The position numbers were made by a program, and so were the translations under genes. The notes under the pieces were generated by a model that was given only the letters and a program-made list of their open reading frames with translations, searched no databases and was not told the DNA's origin. From an uncultured Gammaproteobacteria bacterium (GTDB taxonomy: Bacteria > Patescibacteriota > Microgenomatia > Levybacterales > UBA12049), in contig CAZDOJ010000001.1 in assembly GCA_964507055.1 (NCBI GenBank), positions 721,313-785,312 of the forward strand: 64,000 bases of DNA. Reading direction: 5' to 3'. Positions 55,671 to 63,277 of the stretch are shown here, piece after piece; the stretch's first letter is position 1, and every line of letters starts with the position of its first letter.

Positions 55671-56843
55671 ATGAAAAATGATATTTTGGAGCAGATTTAT
55701 CTGACTTCTCTGGATCTTCTTAACGCTAATTCAGCAAAGAAACTAGAATCGACAATCGTAGAATCATCAAAAAAATTGAGCGGAGCGGCTTATGCTCAGC
55801 TTTACTTCAACCAAAAAGACCGATTAAAGAAAATCTATAGCTCTGATGCCGAGATCAAAAAAAGTACGATGGTGAAAATGCCTGGATTTAAGAAATATGC
55901 TCTTAAACATAGTATCGCTACAGTTCCACAAGATGTTCTTAAAACGTGGAATATTGACCATATGCCACCGAATATTCATGCGATTACTGTGATCCCACTG
56001 CTACACAAAGATAATCCTCTGGGATTTCTTGTCCTATTTTTTATTGAGAAAACAGACCTAAGCGAAGAAACGAAAAAAGCCCTTCTTACACTAAGCCAAA
56101 CAGCAGTTCTTGCGATAACAAAATCACGAATTCAGGAGGAATCCAAAAAAGCATTGGAAATACGAGATAGATTTATTTCGCTTGCTTCACATGAACTACG
56201 AACACCTTTGACTTCTTTACATGGATACATCCAATTGCTCCATGCAAGAATGTCAGGAAAAGAATCTGTTGAAGCACGGTGGATAAACGAATTACATATT
56301 GAGAGCATACGATTAACAACTTTAGTAAAAGAATTGCTCGATGTTAATAGAATCAAACAAGGTCAGTTTGCTTTCGTCTTTAGTGAGGTCCCTATGCAAG
56401 AGGTTGTTGAGAAAGCAATTGAACACTATCGATTAACTAGTGCAGATCATCCTATTACTTTCCAGAATAAACTGGAAGATGATGGCAAAGTCGTAGGAGA
56501 TTTCGATAAGCTGGTTGAAATGGTTTCAGGTCTATTAGGAAACGCGATAAAATTTTCAAAGCCACAAGAAAAGATAGCCATTCTACTGAAAAGTACTCAG
56601 GGAATGCTTTCATTAACGGTAAAAGATACTGGAAAAGGTATAAGTAAGAAGGACCTTGCAGCTGTCTTTGATGGGTTTTATAAAAGTTCTCACGCAAGCC
56701 ACCTAGAAGGTATGGGCGTCGGATTACTTTTAGCAAAGCATATCGTTGAGAATCATAGAGGGAAAATCAAAATCACTTCAAAAGAAAATAAGGGAACAAA
56801 AGTGGAAATTACATTACCGACGATTAAGGCTACTCCCCTTTAA
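55671..56843 (+). CDS. soluble sensor histidine kinase (GAF-like N-domain + HisKA + HATPase_c)
   Basis: H-box SLASHELRTPLTSL, N-box LLGNAIKFS, G1 VKDTGKGI, G2 GMGVGL. No TM segment. Confidence 0.9.
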   Translation: MKNDILEQIYLTSLDLLNANSAKKLESTIVESSKKLSGAAYAQLYFNQKDRLKKIYSSDAEIKKSTMVKMPGFKKYALKHSIATVPQDVLKTWNIDHMPPNIHAITVIPLLHKDNPLGFLVLFFIEKTDLSEETKKALLTLSQTAVLAITKSRIQEESKKALEIRDRFISLASHELRTPLTSLHGYIQLLHARMSGKESVEARWINELHIESIRLTTLVKELLDVNRIKQGQFAFVFSEVPMQEVVEKAIEHYRLTSADHPITFQNKLEDDGKVVGDFDKLVEMVSGLLGNAIKFSKPQEKIAILLKSTQGMLSLTVKDTGKGISKKDLAAVFDGFYKSSHASHLEGMGVGLLLAKHIVENHRGKIKITSKENKGTKVEITLPTIKATPL

Positions 56844-58421
56844 AACGCATGCTTCATAGGGACCTAATGTGATTTGTGTTTCGTTATCAGCGATTGTATG
56901 ATCCGCATTTGTAGATACAACTACCTGCATATCAGAAAACGGTAAGGTCCCAATTTGGTCCTGATCAGTAAAATTCAACAGAATAACTCGCATATCATTA
57001 TCAATCGATCGAGTGAATGCAAAAATCTCATTGTTTTTAACGTCTAGACTATCATATGCACCATTAATAATAACCGCATCCTCCTGACGCATTTTTAGAA
57101 GCTTCCTGTAAAGTGAAAGCATTGAATGCACATCCTTACTTTCATTGGAAACATTTCGTTCCTCCCAAGCATTTTCCAAAGGCAACCACGGTGTTCCTTT
57201 CGTAAATCCAGCATTTTTTGAAGCATCCCATTGCATTGGAGTTCGGACTGGATCACGTCCAAATCCTGGCGACGTATATTCTTTCGTGTCATGAATCATT
57301 TCTCGCGGGATATGCACATCTTCCATACCAAGTTCCTCCCCATAATAAATAACAGGCATACCTGGAAGTGTCAAAAGTAATACTGCTGCAATCTTTGATT
57401 GCCCACGACCAAATCGTGTAGATATACGTGGCTTATCATGATTCCCAAAAACAAATGTTGGAAGCTCTGTTGGAGTTAAGGATTTGATATAAGCCGTAAC
57501 AAATTGTCTGTATGAATCCGCACTCCAAGGAATACGTTGGAGTTCAAAGTTGAAGGGGATGACATTCCCACTGGAGATATTCTCGTAATATTTTTTGTAA
57601 ATCGGGATTGCATCAGTTCCTTTTTTATTGAGATACGATTCAGTAATAAGAAATCCGTCACCATGTTCTTTAATGAATGAACCGAGTTCATCGATAATTT
57701 CAAATACTTTCTCTTGATCACGCATATATATATGCAACTTTTTATAAAACGGTTGTATCGCACCTTCAACATAGGTTAGATCATCAGGTTCATCAAGAAA
57801 TCGTGGATCTTTCCAAAGGTAATTTGCAGCATCCAACCGAAATCCATCGACATCTTTATCAATCCAAAACTTGATAACCTTTTTTACTGCTTGCATCACT
57901 TCGGGATTTGCCCAATTGAGATCAGGCTGCTCAGTAAGAAATGAATGGAAATAATATTGTCCCGTTGATTCATCCCAAGCCCACGGTGTCGGCTCAAAAA
58001 CACTCATCCAGTTATTTGGCTCTTTGCCGTCGACTTTGTCTTTCCAAATATACCAATCTCTTTTGGGATTATCACGGCTGGATCGAGATTCTTGAAACCA
58101 TGGATGCTGATCTGAGGTATGATTTACAACAAGATCGATTACCACTTTAATCCCTCGGGCATGTGCTTGTTCAATAAACTTTTCAAAATCTTTCAGAGTT
58201 CCAAACTCTGGGGAGACATCACAATAATTCTCAATATCATAGCCTCCATCCTTCATCGGAGATGGATAAAATGGAGTAATCCAGATGGCATTAATACCTA
58301 ATTCTTTGAGGTAATCGAGTCGAAAAATGATGCCATTGAGATCACCATAGCCATCACCATTGGAATCTTGGAAACTTCGAGGATATATTTCGTATAGAAC
58401 GAGATTATTCTTTGATGACAT
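56814..58421 (-). CDS. GH13 alpha-glucosidase / oligo-1,6-glucosidase family
   Basis: YEIYPRSFQDSNGDGYGDL, DLVVNHTS, GFRLDAANY and FGNHD. Start taken at MSSKNN; the track ORF starts at 58433. Confidence 0.9.
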   Translation of the reverse strand: MSSKNNLVLYEIYPRSFQDSNGDGYGDLNGIIFRLDYLKELGINAIWITPFYPSPMKDGGYDIENYCDVSPEFGTLKDFEKFIEQAHARGIKVVIDLVVNHTSDQHPWFQESRSSRDNPKRDWYIWKDKVDGKEPNNWMSVFEPTPWAWDESTGQYYFHSFLTEQPDLNWANPEVMQAVKKVIKFWIDKDVDGFRLDAANYLWKDPRFLDEPDDLTYVEGAIQPFYKKLHIYMRDQEKVFEIIDELGSFIKEHGDGFLITESYLNKKGTDAIPIYKKYYENISSGNVIPFNFELQRIPWSADSYRQFVTAYIKSLTPTELPTFVFGNHDKPRISTRFGRGQSKIAAVLLLTLPGMPVIYYGEELGMEDVHIPREMIHDTKEYTSPGFGRDPVRTPMQWDASKNAGFTKGTPWLPLENAWEERNVSNESKDVHSMLSLYRKLLKMRQEDAVIINGAYDSLDVKNNEIFAFTRSIDNDMRVILLNFTDQDQIGTLPFSDMQVVVSTNADHTIADNETQITLGPYEACVLKGSSLNRR

Positions 58422-59076
58422 AACCAAAGCCACGAACAGAGTGCAGTAGCTTTTTCTCAGAATCTGAATCTACTTTCTTTCGGAGATATCCCATGTAGAC
58501 ATCGACGACACGGGTTTCAACATCACTTGAGTATAACCAGATTCGGGAAAGAATCATTTCTCGAGTAAGGATACGACCTTTGTTACTCATTAAATATTGC
58601 AATAATTTAAATTCCTGTGGAGTTAATTGGATTTGCTTGCCACTTCTTTTTACTTCCATTGTCTTTGAATCTAGTTCTAAATCTGCAACTTTCAAAACAG
58701 CTTCATTACTAACTTGTTTTCTGAGTCGGGCTTTAATACGAGCGAGAAATTCATCAGCGACAAATGGCTTTGTCATATAATCATCTGCACCAAGGTTTAA
58801 TCCTTCAACAATATCGTTAATTGAGTCTTTTGCTGTAAGAATGATTATTGGGAGGTCTTTATACTTCTTACGAATTTCGCGAGTAACTGCTTCACCTGAC
58901 ATAACTGGAAGTCCAAGATCCATAACTACTAAATCAGGTTCAGTTTTTTTGAAGTAATCTAAGGCTGCGATACCATCAGAAACAGTATGCACGGAGTATC
59001 CGTTATCAAGAAGTAATTCTTTAAGATATTTTTGCAATCCACGGTCGTCTTCGACCACTAATATTGTTTGCATCAT
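58405..59076 (-). CDS. OmpR/PhoB-family response regulator
   Basis: ILVVEDDRGL, DLVVMDLGLP, KPF, and winged helix LTPQEFKLLQYL...GFGYVI. Start trimmed to MMQTIL, with TGcTATAAT 10 nt upstream. Confidence 0.9.
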   Translation of the reverse strand: MMQTILVVEDDRGLQKYLKELLLDNGYSVHTVSDGIAALDYFKKTEPDLVVMDLGLPVMSGEAVTREIRKKYKDLPIIILTAKDSINDIVEGLNLGADDYMTKPFVADEFLARIKARLRKQVSNEAVLKVADLELDSKTMEVKRSGKQIQLTPQEFKLLQYLMSNKGRILTREMILSRIWLYSSDVETRVVDVYMGYLRKKVDSDSEKKLLHSVRGFGYVIKE

Positions 59077-59147
59077 AACTCGTGCCATTATAGCAACAAA
59101 TGTAAGAACGCACAACTCATAAAATAGCGTATGTAAAAAATTTCAAG

Positions 59148-60377
59148 TTAGAGAGATTTTCGTGGCCCATCTTCCGGCCCATCTTCTTCACCTGACCAAT
59201 CAACTTCTCCTCCCAATGAATCAAGGGGAGAGTCGTCTGAATCCAATGGAGGCATAGAAGGTGGCGGCGTTTTAGGAGCTTCATGTGTAATCCACACACC
59301 CATTGGATCAAAGCCAGTTACCTCAGCAGTTCGTTGATCAATAGTTAATGGATCTCGGAGATCTGCAATATAGTATTCGACTCCCAATAGACTTGGATCT
59401 GTTACTTTATATCCTAAAATTTCACTTACTTGGTCAACAACTTTTTGGGTTGCTGTAGCCCGAGCTTCCACAATCTCTTCGGCAGTTGGATCCTCTTTGC
59501 CAGCTAGGGCATCAGTTGTGAAAGCATCAATTTCCAGCTGCCAACGAGACTGTGCAGCTGCTATATTTTCTTTGACTGGTTGTGCATACATTTCCAATTC
59601 TTGAGCATTGGCACGCAATCCTTTTGTTTTGTCTATATATTCTCGAATTGCTTCACGCTCCAAATCTTGTCCTACAGTAGCTTCTCGCATTATTCGTGCA
59701 GCTTGTACACTATCGAATGCTTCTGCATACTTTCCACGTTCGAAATCGCCAAAAAATGTATCCATTCGCTCTCTAAGTCCTTCTGGATCAGTCATCCCTA
59801 CTCTATAAAAAATGGGACCGAGATTTCCATTACTATGGATCTTTTCCCCTGTAATAATACTGACTCTTTTTAGGACTTCTTCTTGTGCTCTTGAGTTGGC
59901 CTCAAATGGTGGATGATATTGCGAGTACCTATTAACAAGAGTTGTATGTTCTTCCTCAAACAGAAACTGAACAGCCTCAATATGACTTACGACCCCATAT
60001 CTAAAATCGGAATATTCGTTTACTTCATGTATACCGTCACTCGTGTGAGAGGGATCTCTGTGGTATCTTTCCCGAAATAATTGTAGGGTTATTTCATCCC
60101 GATGTTGGGTGAATGATTTTTCATCACGACCCTCTGAATAAGTATTTGGATGTTTCGAAGGTCTCTGATGTATATCATGGGTAAAAAGTTGTATCCCGGG
60201 ATCCCTAGGATCTATCATTCCTTTATCCAGCCATTCTTCCTGGGCAATTTCTTGGGCACGACGTGCGTATCTGCCACGGAATGTGAACCGTGAGGTTGCT
60301 TTAAAAGTTTCCCATCGTTCGCGGAAACCTTGTTTGGGTTGATCTGGTCTACCTGGTTGTGATTCTGGGTTTTTCAT
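59148..60377 (-). CDS. acidic soluble protein of unknown function carrying the C-terminal VDWSG-DGPE tail
   Basis: 409-aa ORF with no TM segment and no motif I recognise. The C-terminus DSDDSPLDSLGGEVDWSGEEDGPEDGPRKSL matches the tail of the upstream gene. Confidence 0.6.
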   Translation of the reverse strand: MKNPESQPGRPDQPKQGFRERWETFKATSRFTFRGRYARRAQEIAQEEWLDKGMIDPRDPGIQLFTHDIHQRPSKHPNTYSEGRDEKSFTQHRDEITLQLFRERYHRDPSHTSDGIHEVNEYSDFRYGVVSHIEAVQFLFEEEHTTLVNRYSQYHPPFEANSRAQEEVLKRVSIITGEKIHSNGNLGPIFYRVGMTDPEGLRERMDTFFGDFERGKYAEAFDSVQAARIMREATVGQDLEREAIREYIDKTKGLRANAQELEMYAQPVKENIAAAQSRWQLEIDAFTTDALAGKEDPTAEEIVEARATATQKVVDQVSEILGYKVTDPSLLGVEYYIADLRDPLTIDQRTAEVTGFDPMGVWITHEAPKTPPPSMPPLDSDDSPLDSLGGEVDWSGEEDGPEDGPRKSL

Positions 60378-60385
60378 AAAGAGTC

Positions 60386-60414
60386 ATTATAATCGAAAGA
60401 TTAGGCACAAGCAA
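60386..60414 (-). promoter_or_regulatory. promoter TTGCTT-17-TATAAT, ATG 8 nt after the -10 (leaderless-type)
   Basis: Minus strand reads TTGCTTgtgcctaatctttcgatTATAATgactctttATG. Confidence 0.55.
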
Positions 60415-60437
60415 GTCTACAGTAAATATCTTATAGA

Positions 60438-63239
60438 TTACAGTGTCTTTTGCTGATCTGTTTCTGGACCATCATTGTCGCCAGACCAGTCCACACCAGA
60501 ATTTAACTCCTCCAATGAGATATCATCTTCAGAGAATTGCGGACGATCTTCACCTGATTGACCAGCGTGAGGAGTAGAACCTGGAAGTTTCTTTTCAAGA
60601 AGACCTTCTTTTTGCAGTGATCGGACAATCTTCCTTGTTTCATTAAATGTAAGCCCGGTAATTGTTGCTATTTCGTCCAATGTAGCATGAGGTCGTAACT
60701 GTATAATCTGATCTCGTTGTCGTTGTTGTGCTTCAAGAACTTCCTCTGTTGGAGAAGTATCTATTCCTTTCTTATCGAGAATAGCTTTTGCATCGTATAA
60801 GGATTCCAATGGATAATTGGTCTCTTCATGTATCTGTTTAATTGACTTACCAGCACGTAAACCGATAATCAGTGCTTCACGACGATCATTTCTCACAACA
60901 TCACTTGTATCTTGCCAGTTCACAACATACCCATAATCACCTGCCTCGGTCAACCTTCGAGCAATATTTTCTTCACTAAGATAGACCGTTCTTGAAATAT
61001 CTTTTATTCGGCTTCCTTCGTTATAAAGAGTAATAACCTCATCGTATCGATCACGTATTTCCTCAGCGGTTCGACCCTGAAGATCTGTAGGAATTTGAGA
61101 TAGTACTGTATCTACCATTGGCTTTATAAGTTCCCATGAAACCCTATCTTGCACTTTACTTGCATAGGTACTCCATGCATGACGCATAGATCTTGCATCG
61201 CTTTCTTGATCATCCATATGCGGTGCAAAAATCTCAGCAACTCTTGCTAAGGAGTATGGACTGCCGAAAGGATCTTCATTACCTGCTTGTGATTCAACTG
61301 TTGTAAAGTATGTTTGCTTGAGAGTGGAGAGATCAGTTCTTGAAAGATCCATTCGGCTGAGTAATTCTTCGGCAGCATCTCTTCGGTCAACAGACCAAGC
61401 AGCGTCATTTCCAATTCCCCGAATTAACCGAGCAGCAAGATCTGTGGATTGGTCTGGAGTTAGTTCATTCATAGCAGCCATTGCTTCTGCTCTTACAGTG
61501 GTCCATTCAGCAGGATCACTGTGATAAAACTTCCACAGGTGGTTATCACCTAAATATTTTTCTATTATTTGCACTTGAGGATCAAGTTCATCAGGCCGGA
61601 GTAGTTTTATTTCACCCTTCGCGAGTGCACGTATCGATTCAAGATCACCCTCCACCTTTAAAGCATCTGCGTGGATCAGATGTTCCATCAGATCATCGAC
61701 ACGTCCCATACTTTTATCCCAAGTAGTTGATCCCATACTATTCAAATTAACAGCTCTTACCCATGTATCTCTGATATCCCAAAGCCCTTGGGTATCTGTT
61801 TGCAATACTTCAGCAAGGATAGTTCCTGACTGCAATAGAAGATTTGGATCGGAGGTATTACTCTGATTTTCTACTGCCCATAAATACCGCTCGGTCAATA
61901 CATTAGAATCTAAGCCTTCAAGATCTACCCCTCTTAAAAGCTGTAAAGCAACGTATTTTGCATTCCCCTCTCTCCCCATTTTGCTAATGAGAGCTCTAGT
62001 AAACCACGTTCTTTCTTTTGTGTTTAATCTATTTATATCGTGCACTGCACCTTTGTATTCGTCACTTGCAGTTCGGCGATCAAGAAATCTCTTATACTGA
62101 CTGGCAAACAATCTATATTCCAAAGTTGCGGCATTAAACTCAGTCCTTTTTTCTTCAGCTTCGTTCGTTTCTGGTACTTCAGGGACTTCACCACCTTGTT
62201 GTACCCAATAATCCAGTATATGTTCATCTGTACTTAACTTTTGTAAAGTATTTTTATACACACGTCTAACAGTCATCGAAGAGATACCCATTCTTTCCGC
62301 TATTATCTCTTGTGTTACACCATCTTTGAAAACCGCTTCAAGAATATCCCGCTCTCGTTCTGTTAAACTCTCAGTCACAGTATCAAATACGTTATGAACA
62401 TCAACTGGTGTAGCCATAGACCTAGTAAGATATTCCTCTACTGTATCCTCTGGTACTACTCCTATTTCCTTAAAAATCATTCCAATGGCGGTTTGTATAT
62501 GTAAATCAATTGGCTGAGAATCCATCGTACTGAGATGTTCAGCAATAGCTTGTCTTGTAGGCATTTCTCCGTGTTGCTCGAAATAATTATTAGCAAATGA
62601 ATAGCCCTCCAGATAAACTAACTGAGCAATTCTGGGAATTCTAATCTCATCATCTTGTTGAACTCGTGCCTCAAAAATTGCACTTCTTACTCTTCTTGTA
62701 GCATATTGATAATAATCTACGCCTGAATCAGGATCATAGTCATCGAGTACATTGGTAAGCTCTGCTAGTCCTTCTTGAAACCTATCTTCAATTGTCATAT
62801 GCTTTGTGGTATGCCTTCGGGCAGGTCCAAGGATAATACCGAGACTACAGTTTAAAAGAAGTTGTGATACAGAATTACTCTCTGTAATTACTGCCTCGAA
62901 TTCCTGTTGAAATTTATTACTATTTTCTGGTGTATTGGTTCCAAAGGCTTCATTCGTTTGAATATCTGACAGTAACTCTGTACGCTGCGTATGCATTTGC
63001 TTTCGTGCTGAGGGTGTAGGATTCTCATTATAGTTATTGACTATAGATTTTTCTTGTGTGTATGCTCGAAACAAAACTGACCATTGACGCTGTGACAATT
63101 TCTGAGGATACCGAATAATTTTATTCCAGTAATCTGCATGCAAAGAAATGCTCCCAGCACCTTCTTCACGGGCTCTGTCAGCATATTCTTCTTCCCTAAA
63201 TCGGCGAGCAACCGCACCAGGTCTATTTCTCTCTGTCAT
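60438..63239 (-). CDS. sigma-70-family-like protein with ~570-aa C-terminal extension (internal repeats, three extra HTH modules, acidic VDWSG-DGPE tail)
   Basis: Region 2-like EDRFQEGLAELTNVLDDYDPDSGVDYYQYATRRVRSAI. Region 3-like IRIPRIAQLV...GEMPTRQAIAEHL. Region 4 LTERERDILEAVFKDGVTQEIIAERMGISSMTVRRVYKNTLQKL. Three further HTH-like units precede the tail. Confidence 0.65.
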   Translation of the reverse strand: MTERNRPGAVARRFREEEYADRAREEGAGSISLHADYWNKIIRYPQKLSQRQWSVLFRAYTQEKSIVNNYNENPTPSARKQMHTQRTELLSDIQTNEAFGTNTPENSNKFQQEFEAVITESNSVSQLLLNCSLGIILGPARRHTTKHMTIEDRFQEGLAELTNVLDDYDPDSGVDYYQYATRRVRSAIFEARVQQDDEIRIPRIAQLVYLEGYSFANNYFEQHGEMPTRQAIAEHLSTMDSQPIDLHIQTAIGMIFKEIGVVPEDTVEEYLTRSMATPVDVHNVFDTVTESLTERERDILEAVFKDGVTQEIIAERMGISSMTVRRVYKNTLQKLSTDEHILDYWVQQGGEVPEVPETNEAEEKRTEFNAATLEYRLFASQYKRFLDRRTASDEYKGAVHDINRLNTKERTWFTRALISKMGREGNAKYVALQLLRGVDLEGLDSNVLTERYLWAVENQSNTSDPNLLLQSGTILAEVLQTDTQGLWDIRDTWVRAVNLNSMGSTTWDKSMGRVDDLMEHLIHADALKVEGDLESIRALAKGEIKLLRPDELDPQVQIIEKYLGDNHLWKFYHSDPAEWTTVRAEAMAAMNELTPDQSTDLAARLIRGIGNDAAWSVDRRDAAEELLSRMDLSRTDLSTLKQTYFTTVESQAGNEDPFGSPYSLARVAEIFAPHMDDQESDARSMRHAWSTYASKVQDRVSWELIKPMVDTVLSQIPTDLQGRTAEEIRDRYDEVITLYNEGSRIKDISRTVYLSEENIARRLTEAGDYGYVVNWQDTSDVVRNDRREALIIGLRAGKSIKQIHEETNYPLESLYDAKAILDKKGIDTSPTEEVLEAQQRQRDQIIQLRPHATLDEIATITGLTFNETRKIVRSLQKEGLLEKKLPGSTPHAGQSGEDRPQFSEDDISLEELNSGVDWSGDNDGPETDQQKTL

Positions 63240-63248
63240 AATCGAATG

Positions 63249-63277
63249 ATTATACTCCTGTTCTTCATCAAACTCAA
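63249..63277 (-). promoter_or_regulatory. promoter TTGAGT-17-TATAAT, ATG 9 nt after the -10 (leaderless-type)
   Basis: Minus strand reads TTGAGTttgatgaagaacaggagTATAATcattcgattATG. Confidence 0.55.

Follow-up and report, generated by a model that had tools for sequence, protein, structure and literature searches.

The 64,000-nt stretch of contig CAZDOJ010000001.1 analysed here (the window) carries two consecutive minus-strand genes whose products, an acidic sigma-70-family protein of 933 amino acids (aa) and an acidic, helical protein of 409 aa, end in closely similar C-terminal tails (Table 1). Both open reading frames (ORFs) are present exactly as given in a preliminary description of this DNA. 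That description also called both proteins acidic and found in neither a transmembrane (TM) segment or a signal peptide, and each point holds. The isoelectric points (pI) are 4.9, when most neighbouring proteins lie above pI 8.5, and the maximal 19-residue Kyte-Doolittle mean is 1.16 for the 933-aa protein and 0.63 for the 409-aa protein. The pair occurs on ten contigs, namely an NCBI contig of 1,318,932 bp and contigs from the Logan runs SRR142713xx, whose DNA is 100% identical and represents one strain.

Table 1. Features of the tailed gene pair, and the ATPase gene of a relative. Positions are those of the window unless a contig piece is named; HMM, hidden Markov model; HTH, helix-turn-helix; iE, independent E-value.
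Feature	Position	Strand	Remarks
Gene for 933-aa acidic sigma-70-family protein	60438..63239	-	ORF; pI 4.87
Gene for 409-aa acidic helical protein	59148..60377	-	ORF; pI 4.92; without known family
Promoter-like site of 933-aa gene	63249..63277	-	TTGAGT, 17 nt spacer, TATAAT; 9 nt to ATG, leaderless-type
TATAAT box of 409-aa gene	60386..60391	-	8 nt upstream of ATG
Sigma regions 1.2-4.2 of 933-aa protein	62232..62936	-	residues 102-336; align to SigA/HrdB chains (8dy7_F, 8k60_F, others), E ~6e-9
C-terminal extension of 933-aa protein, ~560 residues	60546..62231	-	residues 337-898; predicted all-helical, weak HTH-like segments
Tail of 933-aa protein	60441..60545	-	residues 899-933; stop codon 60438-60440
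Tail of 409-aa protein	59151..59255	-	residues 375-409; preceded by Pro-rich linker APKTPPPSMPP
409-type helical module	59316..59669	-	residues 237-354; ...TDPxxxGVEYY...DP
Candidate degenerate first module copy	59754..59903	-	residues 159-208; weak HMM match, iE 6.6e-4
Gene for 1879-aa VirD4/TraG-like ATPase (relative)	L107 712-6351	-	contig SRR30654424_1210551

The tails are the sole significant similarity between the two proteins. BLASTP aligns residues 905-933 of the larger protein with residues 381-409 of the smaller (15 of 29 identical, E = 8e-6), in line with the residue-for-residue match first reported. When the last 40 residues of all 49 window ORFs of at least 150 aa are compared by the Smith-Waterman method, the tail pair scores 88, against 17.9 +/- 4.9 for the other pairs of window ORFs. 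A single pair scores higher, and it consists of two full-length paralogous epimerases; the other high-scoring pairs are likewise full-length paralogues. Across 20,000 composition-preserving shuffles, the score never rises above 60. Among 1.84e9 representative proteins searched with HMMER, the 933-aa protein is retrieved by way of its tail alone (52.6 bits, E = 3e-9), a result that serves as a positive control.

At the DNA level, the tails are not alike, as the preliminary description had maintained: their nucleotide identity is 50.5%. Just three of the 15 identical residues are specified by the same codon, one of them being Trp, and 12 of the 14 identical residues with degenerate codons are specified by different ones. 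Given this nucleotide divergence and the codon differences, the likeness of the tails has been kept by selection on the peptide, and the tail is a real feature under purifying selection. The same values reject a recent duplication or exchange of DNA as the source of the tails. An element acting as RNA or DNA at the gene ends is also rejected, since the tails are about 50% identical in nucleotides and the window has no Rfam match.

Both tails are acidic, with a net charge of -9 over the last 33 residues, both are rich in D, E, G, P and S, and both follow Pro/Gly-rich linkers. The AlphaFold2 (AF2) models, which are of low confidence (predicted local distance difference test, pLDDT, 43), show no secondary structure in the tail of either protein, and the low-confidence model of the 933-aa protein shows none after residue 877. 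Such a composition would suit tails without function, that is, acidic low-complexity ends that resemble each other by chance or derive from recent duplication or gene conversion. This explanation is exceedingly improbable in view of the empty shuffle test, the E-value of 3e-9 in 1.84e9 proteins, the 50% nucleotide identity with differing codons at 12 of 14 positions, and the fact that two other lineages show the same phenomenon, each with a tail of its own (on 2 and about 22 genes; see below).

Within the same genome, the 64-kb window and about 19 kb of flanking sequence contain no further tail-bearing ORF. Nor is there a third VDWSG tail among the 1.84e9 representative proteins at or above about 42 bits; this exhaustive search also shows that the tail is not a common kind of acidic C-terminus, an objection that the preliminary description had raised against itself. 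A degenerate DNA scan for DWSG[DE]xDGP in 185,579 species genomes (the source genome not included) gives 88 matches, about the number expected by chance, and none is tail-like. One further attempt, a word-indexed search with a 45-aa tail alignment, is uninformative because it missed its own two queries. As first stated, the tail belongs to no described family: Pfam, NCBIfam, PHROG and PADLOC give no match, and nothing comparable was found in the literature.

Regions 2, 3 and 4 of sigma-70 had been recognized in the N-terminal part of the 933-aa protein from its sequence. Profile searches bear this out for the family and for region 4. TIGR02937 matches residues 139-336 with 69.5 bits (cut-off 42.9), and Pfam Sigma70_r4 matches residues 291-335 with 51.2 bits (cut-off 24.1, E = 9e-14). 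Region 2 is marginal (Sigma70_r2, residues 139-192, 21.9 bits against a cut-off of 24.0); the QEG and IRIP motifs are retained in the alignment with SigA. Region 3 is seen only via the full-length SigA/HrdB alignment. To judge from these matches, the 933-aa protein is a member of the sigma-70 family. A principal sigma factor of the RpoD/SigA equivalog is rejected, as TIGR02393 RpoD_Cterm reaches 42 bits against a cut-off of 354; the RpoD, RpoS and SigB/F/G models all fall far under their cut-offs. The melting motif of regions 2.3/2.4, YATWWIRQAI, reads YATRRVRSAI in this protein (about 62640-62670, residues ~178-188). Both promoter-melting Trp residues are thus replaced by Arg, which calls into question whether the 933-aa protein melts promoters in the way of a normal sigma factor. 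The 1000-aa orthologue of the relative described below keeps one Trp (VAMQWIRNSV).

The long region beyond the sigma core is present, at about 560 residues in place of the roughly 570 first estimated. Its designation as multi-HTH is not upheld, since HTH matches within it are sub-threshold only (HTH_40 at residues 733-807, HTH_7 at 730-752 and HTH_Crp_2 at 839-883). A single-sequence AF2 model (pLDDT 43) shows a helical body and is too poor for fold searches. For the extension, tblastn finds nothing meaningful in 50,697 phages or 72,556 plasmids, and an alignment of the long sigma-like proteins finds no relatives in JGI metagenomes or IMG/VR. The pattern RRxxxIxGLRAGKxI, taken from the extension, has seven metagenome matches, all of them chance by tblastn, and no viral match. 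PHROGs yield generic sigma/HTH matches only. A role in a defence system (the sigma factor MzaA of MZA, or CARF/Csa3) is rejected because generic sigma/HTH segments alone match, MzaA at 22.5 bits, and no Mza partner genes are found among the neighbours of the tailed pair.

The 409-aa protein has no match in Pfam, NCBIfam, PHROGs or PADLOC, and its sole match among PDB sequences (E = 0.011) is irrelevant. The earlier statement that it belongs to no described family accordingly stands, with the profile libraries empty and no match in the literature. The suggestion that it is anti-sigma-like finds no supporting evidence and no match to an anti-sigma or co-factor profile. Here too the single-sequence AF2 model is helical in its body and too poor (pLDDT 43) for fold searches. 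The C-terminal half of the protein contains the module through which its relatives are recognized. Against PDB, the module profile returns coiled-coil-like noise only, and the module pattern is not matched in viral sequences. A candidate first copy of the module matches the C-terminal half of the module profile; as the 409-aa protein is itself in the training alignment, this match is suggestive only.

Word-indexed homologue searches with each protein recover only the proteins themselves. The exhaustive HMMER search of the 1.84e9 representatives, with a profile built from the 409-aa protein and both tails, gives four matches: the query, the 933-aa protein, P0003 (751 aa) and P0004 (772 aa). A helical module of about 115 residues, matching residues 226-350 of the 409-aa protein, is present twice in P0003 and twice in P0004. 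Two copies are also present in an 808-aa protein and in the 1879-aa VirD4/TraG-like protein encoded on the same contig as P0003. Just three lineages with the 409-type module are thus found among the 1.84e9 representatives, and in all three, the module protein shares a tail with its neighbours. Since these lineages were found via the module, its presence in them follows from the design of the search, which did not include the tails.

P0004 is encoded on a 3.6-kb soil contig (L098), where the gene upstream ends in the same tail. This tail (GIxLNGGS...GMFxQxP...DxR-stop) is unlike the VDWSG tail; the pair scores 58, and three of 20,000 shuffles reach that score. A third ORF of this contig resembles the extension of the long sigma-like proteins weakly (hhalign E = 0.003, probability 10%).

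P0003 is encoded on contig SRR30654424_1210551 of a second relative. This contig is 44.5 kb long, of which 38.6 kb (L097, L107 and L108) was read, with the leftmost 5.8 kb excluded. A core motif, [FY]x[RK]YG[VIL], is present in 22 of 23 consecutive genes, 21 of which also end in [IV][DE]E, and an upstream [RK]Y[LF] element often accompanies it. In a six-frame scan of the 22-kb L097, the core motif occurs 14 times, always 18-27 residues before the stop of a long ORF; in the 64-kb window, it does not occur at all. With the tails removed, the proteins are mostly unrelated to one another, and codons vary at the conserved tail positions. Sigma-70-family proteins account for five members of the tagged set, of which one is RpoD-like, two are SigB/F/G-like, one is ECF-like and one is divergent. 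The set also contains at least four HTH proteins, leucine-rich-repeat (LRR)-like, Ser/Thr/Gly-rich low-complexity and enzyme-like proteins, and several unknowns. The signature of this contig is that of the window pair: a G+C content of 0.42, G+C at third codon positions (GC3) of about 0.26, acidic products, and a TATAAT 7-10 nt before each ATG.

Paralogous pairs lie inside this tagged cluster, which indicates that it grows partly by duplication. They are the 317-aa and 298-aa proteins (L097 2926-3879 and 5358-6254, E = 8e-21), and P0003 (L097 10001-12256) and the 808-aa protein (L108 11270-13696), which have a common N-terminal domain and two modules each. In another member, a 905-aa protein without a signal peptide (L108 13826-16543, plus strand), some 500 residues are of low complexity, rich in Ser/Thr/Gly/Asp and in Pro-Glu. 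This protein carries the core motif as VFDRYGLDGEE and then a longer, different end (...DIDMDEPNM).

The same contig encodes a 1000-aa sigma-like protein that is homologous to the 933-aa protein over its full length and collinear with it (residues 46-937 against 40-887, E = 5e-56), with RRxxxIxGLRAGKxI kept in the extension. The homology ends where the tails start. The 933-aa protein ends in ...VDWSGDNDGPETDQQKTL, and the 1000-aa protein ends in ...IYQKYGVVPVEDTSLTKQYLPEIEE. Tail scores between the lineages are at background (24 against 20.6 +/- 4.5), when the mean within the contig is 48. Orthologues have therefore kept their bodies and exchanged their tails. It is this replacement of the tail by a lineage-specific one that explains why a search for VDWSG[DE].DGPE, proposed in the preliminary description as a means of finding relatives, retrieved no further tails. 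The expectation that orthologues conserve the tail is borne out for the concept of a shared tail and fails for the exact VDWSG..DGPE motif. The neighbourhood of sigma-like and module-protein genes recurs in relatives, which answers the doubt as to whether the arrangement would be syntenic in related genomes. The product of the 406-aa gene downstream of the relative's sigma-like orthologue has no similarity to the 409-aa protein. Tails that are uniform within a genome and differ between genomes, on orthologous bodies, form the pattern expected of a ligand that co-evolves with a shared receptor.

A candidate for such a receptor is encoded among the tailed genes of this contig. The 1879-aa ATPase is the only product of the 23 genes to lack the core motif, and its end is a degenerate form of the tail (...VLEKYD...PTIDE). 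T4SS-DNA_transf (24.3 bits, cut-off 20.1) and TraG-D_C (25.9 bits, cut-off 22) both match in its C-terminal third, and it resembles the VirD4-like CD1115 family with E = 1.7e-9, under the equivalog cut-off. Walker A (ARSGVGKT) and Walker B (FVVDE) motifs are present; FtsK_SpoIIIE gives no match. Two copies of the 409-type module are recognized in the N-terminal half, by hmmsearch with iE 8.5e-9 and 7e-4, where no window ORF gives a false positive, and by hhalign with a probability of 90% and E = 1.7e-6. Long linkers rich in Ser, Thr, Ala and Glu precede the ATPase domain. This fusion of the module with a VirD4-like ATPase is an unusual architecture for a coupling protein.

The preferred reading of these observations, held tentatively and at a little less than an even chance, is that the tail acts as a signal, specific to each lineage, for recruitment to a coupling-protein apparatus, with the 409-aa protein as a stand-alone adaptor module and the sigma-like protein as cargo. 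The tail would be a disordered, strongly acidic C-terminal recognition peptide whose sequence is specific to each lineage, and it would mark otherwise unrelated proteins, mostly transcription factors, for one common, co-evolving partner. The likeliest partner is a VirD4/TraG-type coupling apparatus, the substrate-recruitment ATPase of type IV secretion. The 933-aa protein would then be a tagged client, and the 409-aa protein a free-standing, itself tagged copy of the module in the N-terminal half of the ATPase, serving as an adaptor or auxiliary subunit and perhaps as the reader of the tail. Binding of the tail to the module or the ATPase, export from the cell, and the presence of such an ATPase in the genome of the window are all presumed by this reading.

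In type IV secretion systems (T4SSs), substrate signals are generally C-terminal, unstructured and often acidic, and acidic tails at the extreme C-terminus, preceded by linkers, on proteins without a signal peptide or TM segment fit known signals of this kind. In the window pair as in T4SS substrates, the tail lies at the extreme C-terminus, is unstructured (here in low-confidence models) and is common to unrelated bodies. The systems compared are those of VirD4/TraG, of Legionella DotL with DotM/N/Y/Z and IcmS-IcmW, and of the Xanthomonas XVIPCD effectors, in which unrelated proteins likewise carry a non-cleaved, unstructured and often acidic C-terminal signal. The likeness extends to the lineage specificity of the signal, to the clustering of the genes with a VirD4-like ATPase among them in the relative, and to the aid of auxiliary proteins in recognition (PMC12857230). 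Type IV coupling proteins (T4CPs) are the receptors of T4SS substrates and typically act with auxiliary adaptor proteins (PMC12857230). The tail motifs described here differ in that they match no described signal, and the cargo would be mainly sigma-70-family and HTH proteins. The relative's 1879-aa ATPase differs as well, with no TM helix, two novel modules and a degenerate tail. No channel components are seen, nor is a coupling ATPase seen near the window pair.

The preliminary description had proposed a docking, degradation or export tag shared by a transcription factor and a partner. A functional, selected tag on a sigma-70-family protein and its neighbour is upheld. Export or recruitment has gained support because, in the one relative with long context, the gene of a VirD4/TraG-like ATPase that includes the 409-type module lies amid the tailed genes, and an anti-sigma partner has gained none.

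Several points weigh against recruitment by a coupling apparatus. The roughly 83 kb read of the window's genome contains no T4CP or other T4SS gene, and at or above about 42 bits that genome has just two tailed proteins. In the relative, no VirB4, relaxase or channel gene is visible in about 39 kb, and the connection between tail and ATPase is based on a single contig. The VirD4-like protein is barely above the Pfam cut-offs, carries a degenerate tail itself, and has no N-terminal TM anchor (maximal 19-residue Kyte-Doolittle mean 1.07); its role could lie in the DNA transfer of a mobile element or elsewhere. Most tagged proteins are sigma factors or HTH regulators, which act in a cytoplasm, and to our knowledge translocated sigma factors are without precedent. 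In one cultivated Patescibacterium, the t4cp gene is reported to be non-essential (PMC12102498). The taxonomy of all three organisms is putative.

The bias toward transcription factors is explained better by an intracellular docking tag, the main alternative, than by export, though docking leaves the coupling ATPase unaccounted for. The tail would then tether sigma factors and HTH regulators to a cytoplasmic partner, be it an AAA+ protease or its adaptor, a sequestering anti-sigma-like factor, or RNA polymerase, for joint control without export. Such a role is possible, and somewhat doubtful. Five sigma-70-family and at least four HTH proteins are among the 23 of the contig, to which the 933-aa protein can be added, and the motifs (VDWSG..DGPE; [FY]x[RK]YG..E[IV][DE]E) are sharply conserved. 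Docking peptides such as NWETF, ssrA/SspB and EEVD-TPR typically show such sharp conservation, and many secretion signals are loosely defined. The ordinary chromosomal region and native GC3 of the window pair, a Lon gene 7 kb from it, and the missing membrane anchor of the VirD4-like protein also suit a cytoplasmic tether. Less easily reconciled with one are the position of a VirD4/TraG-like ATPase, fused to the 409-type module, inside the tagged cluster, and the tagged LRR-like, Ser/Thr/Gly-rich and enzyme-like proteins, which are not evidently transcription factors. Nor does an acidic ...EIEE terminus resemble the known C-terminal degrons of ClpX or Lon, and no candidate receptor is identified in any locus.

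The ATPase could alternatively point to a mobile element. The relative's contig would then be a conjugative plasmid or would resemble an integrative and conjugative element, the tail would serve nucleoprotein or relaxosome-like assembly or co-transfer with DNA, and the window pair would be a domesticated remnant. A VirD4/TraG-like ATPase among tightly packed genes, nearly all on one strand and each with its own promoter, is in keeping with this, as is the extreme rarity of the family, whose members are singletons, as expected of fast-evolving accessory DNA. The explanation is nevertheless very unlikely: the 39 kb shows no gene for a relaxase, VirB4, replication or partition, nothing similar is contained in 72,556 plasmids, 50,697 phages or IMG/VR, and the window pair has the GC3 and promoter style of its chromosomal neighbours. 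Searched by tblastn against the 50,697 phages, both tail types give nothing meaningful.

A more specific form of the recruitment reading, judged unlikely, is that a Candidate Phyla Radiation (CPR)-like bacterium with a small genome, probably an epibiont, injects a tagged kit of sigma, HTH and accessory proteins through a type IV system and so reprograms the transcription of its partner cell. The lineage-specific tag would be read by a VirD4-like coupling complex composed of 409-type modules, with the 933-aa protein as the translocated sigma factor and the 409-aa protein as its adaptor. T4SSs occur widely in Patescibacteria, for the most part without a relaxase, and in the one case tested epibiotic growth requires them; their substrates are unknown (PMC12857230, PMC12102498). 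If the injected kit were real, it would supply the long-sought substrates of these systems and the first case of sigma factor delivery between bacteria. If the tail is a recruitment signal of any kind, then the same C-terminal peptide on neighbouring unrelated genes would be a handle for listing candidate T4SS substrates in ultra-small uncultivated bacteria, and a cargo dominated by sigma factors and DNA-binding proteins would suggest transcriptional takeover of a partner cell. Should the organisms prove Patescibacteria-like, the tag would make the question of T4SS substrates testable. If the tail instead serves intracellular docking or turnover, a set of alternative sigma factors would come under one switch in a new way.

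Other known systems resemble parts of this arrangement. ECF41, ECF42 and related groups of extracytoplasmic function (ECF) sigma factors carry fused C-terminal regulatory extensions (PMC3426412, PMC8999054). As in these, a sigma-70 core in the 933-aa protein is followed by a long C-terminal extension that probably modulates or adds function. Unlike these, the core is group-1/3-like, regions 1.2-4.2 aligning with SigA, and the extension, of about 560 residues, is helical, has no SnoaL or TPR domain, and ends in a tag common to non-sigma proteins.

Short peptides that tether several proteins to one partner include NWETF of chemoreceptors (for CheR/CheB), the bipartite ssrA tag (for SspB and ClpX) and EEVD of Hsp70/Hsp90 (for TPR domains). 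They share with the tails a short conserved C-terminal motif after a flexible linker; the bipartite ssrA tag has a parallel in the relative's tail, which consists of two or three parts separated by variable spacers. This likeness is an analogy without a sequence match, and the tagged set described here differs in being heterogeneous and clustered. Encapsulin cargo genes are neighbours whose products have a common short C-terminal peptide after a flexible linker. The present loci differ in that none contains a shell gene (Pfam lists), and the motif is unrelated to GSL-type loading peptides. Type VII (Esx) substrates, with WXG and YxxxD/E motifs, are rejected on architecture: the proteins here are of 409-1000 aa, with the motif in a disordered tail and not in a helical hairpin. 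In the relative's tails, the conserved acid is more often at +3 from the Tyr than at +4, the position in YxxxD/E. As far as sequence comparison can tell, then, neither the tail motifs nor the 409-type module nor the long sigma-like proteins fall within a described family. The module, the long sigma-like family with its extension of ~560 residues, and the occurrence of orthologous bodies with lineage-specific tails are new.

The start regions and composition of the tailed genes are those of their surroundings. The TATAAT boxes close to both ATGs, which the preliminary description had singled out, are present and are the norm across the window, TAnAAT lying 6-17 nt before the start in 18 of 49 ORFs. 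The missing Shine-Dalgarno (SD) sequence is likewise no special trait, since an SD-like 4-mer precedes just five of the 49. Leaderless-type starts are the norm of this genome. The higher G+C content that had been seen by eye is confirmed (0.43 and 0.40 against 0.351 +/- 0.024), and it does not extend to GC3 (0.27 against 0.265 +/- 0.03), the excess lying in the first two codon positions. With GC3 at the window mean, the excess reflects amino-acid composition, and a foreign origin of the pair is rejected.

The 9-mer TTCGATTAT (minus strand) has exactly two copies in the window, at 60389-60397 and 63238-63246. The first extends into the -10 box of the 409-aa gene, and the second into the ATG of the 933-aa gene. 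This copy number is unremarkable (1.05 expected); the placement at the 5' ends of both tailed genes is noteworthy, as a post hoc observation. From its position, TTCGATTAT could be a shared operator of the two genes.

Downstream of the pair, on the same strand, lie genes for an OmpR-type response regulator (58405-59115) and an alpha-amylase (56814-58433), followed by a convergent gene for a HisKA kinase (55671-56843). On the minus strand, a terminator-like site was found neither between the 933-aa and 409-aa genes nor between the pair and the gene for the OmpR-type regulator; given the latter, co-transcription of the pair with the regulator is possible. Positions 1-34100 of the window, together with about 10 kb before its start (L106), form a near-unbroken cell-envelope glycan cluster of more than 30 genes, with GT2 and GT4 glycosyltransferases, several PMT_2 and MptA/B-type enzymes, flippases and epimerases, as well as a DUF5652 gene. 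The small genome, the DUF5652 gene and the PMT_2-rich clusters make an affiliation of the window organism with the CPR plausible.

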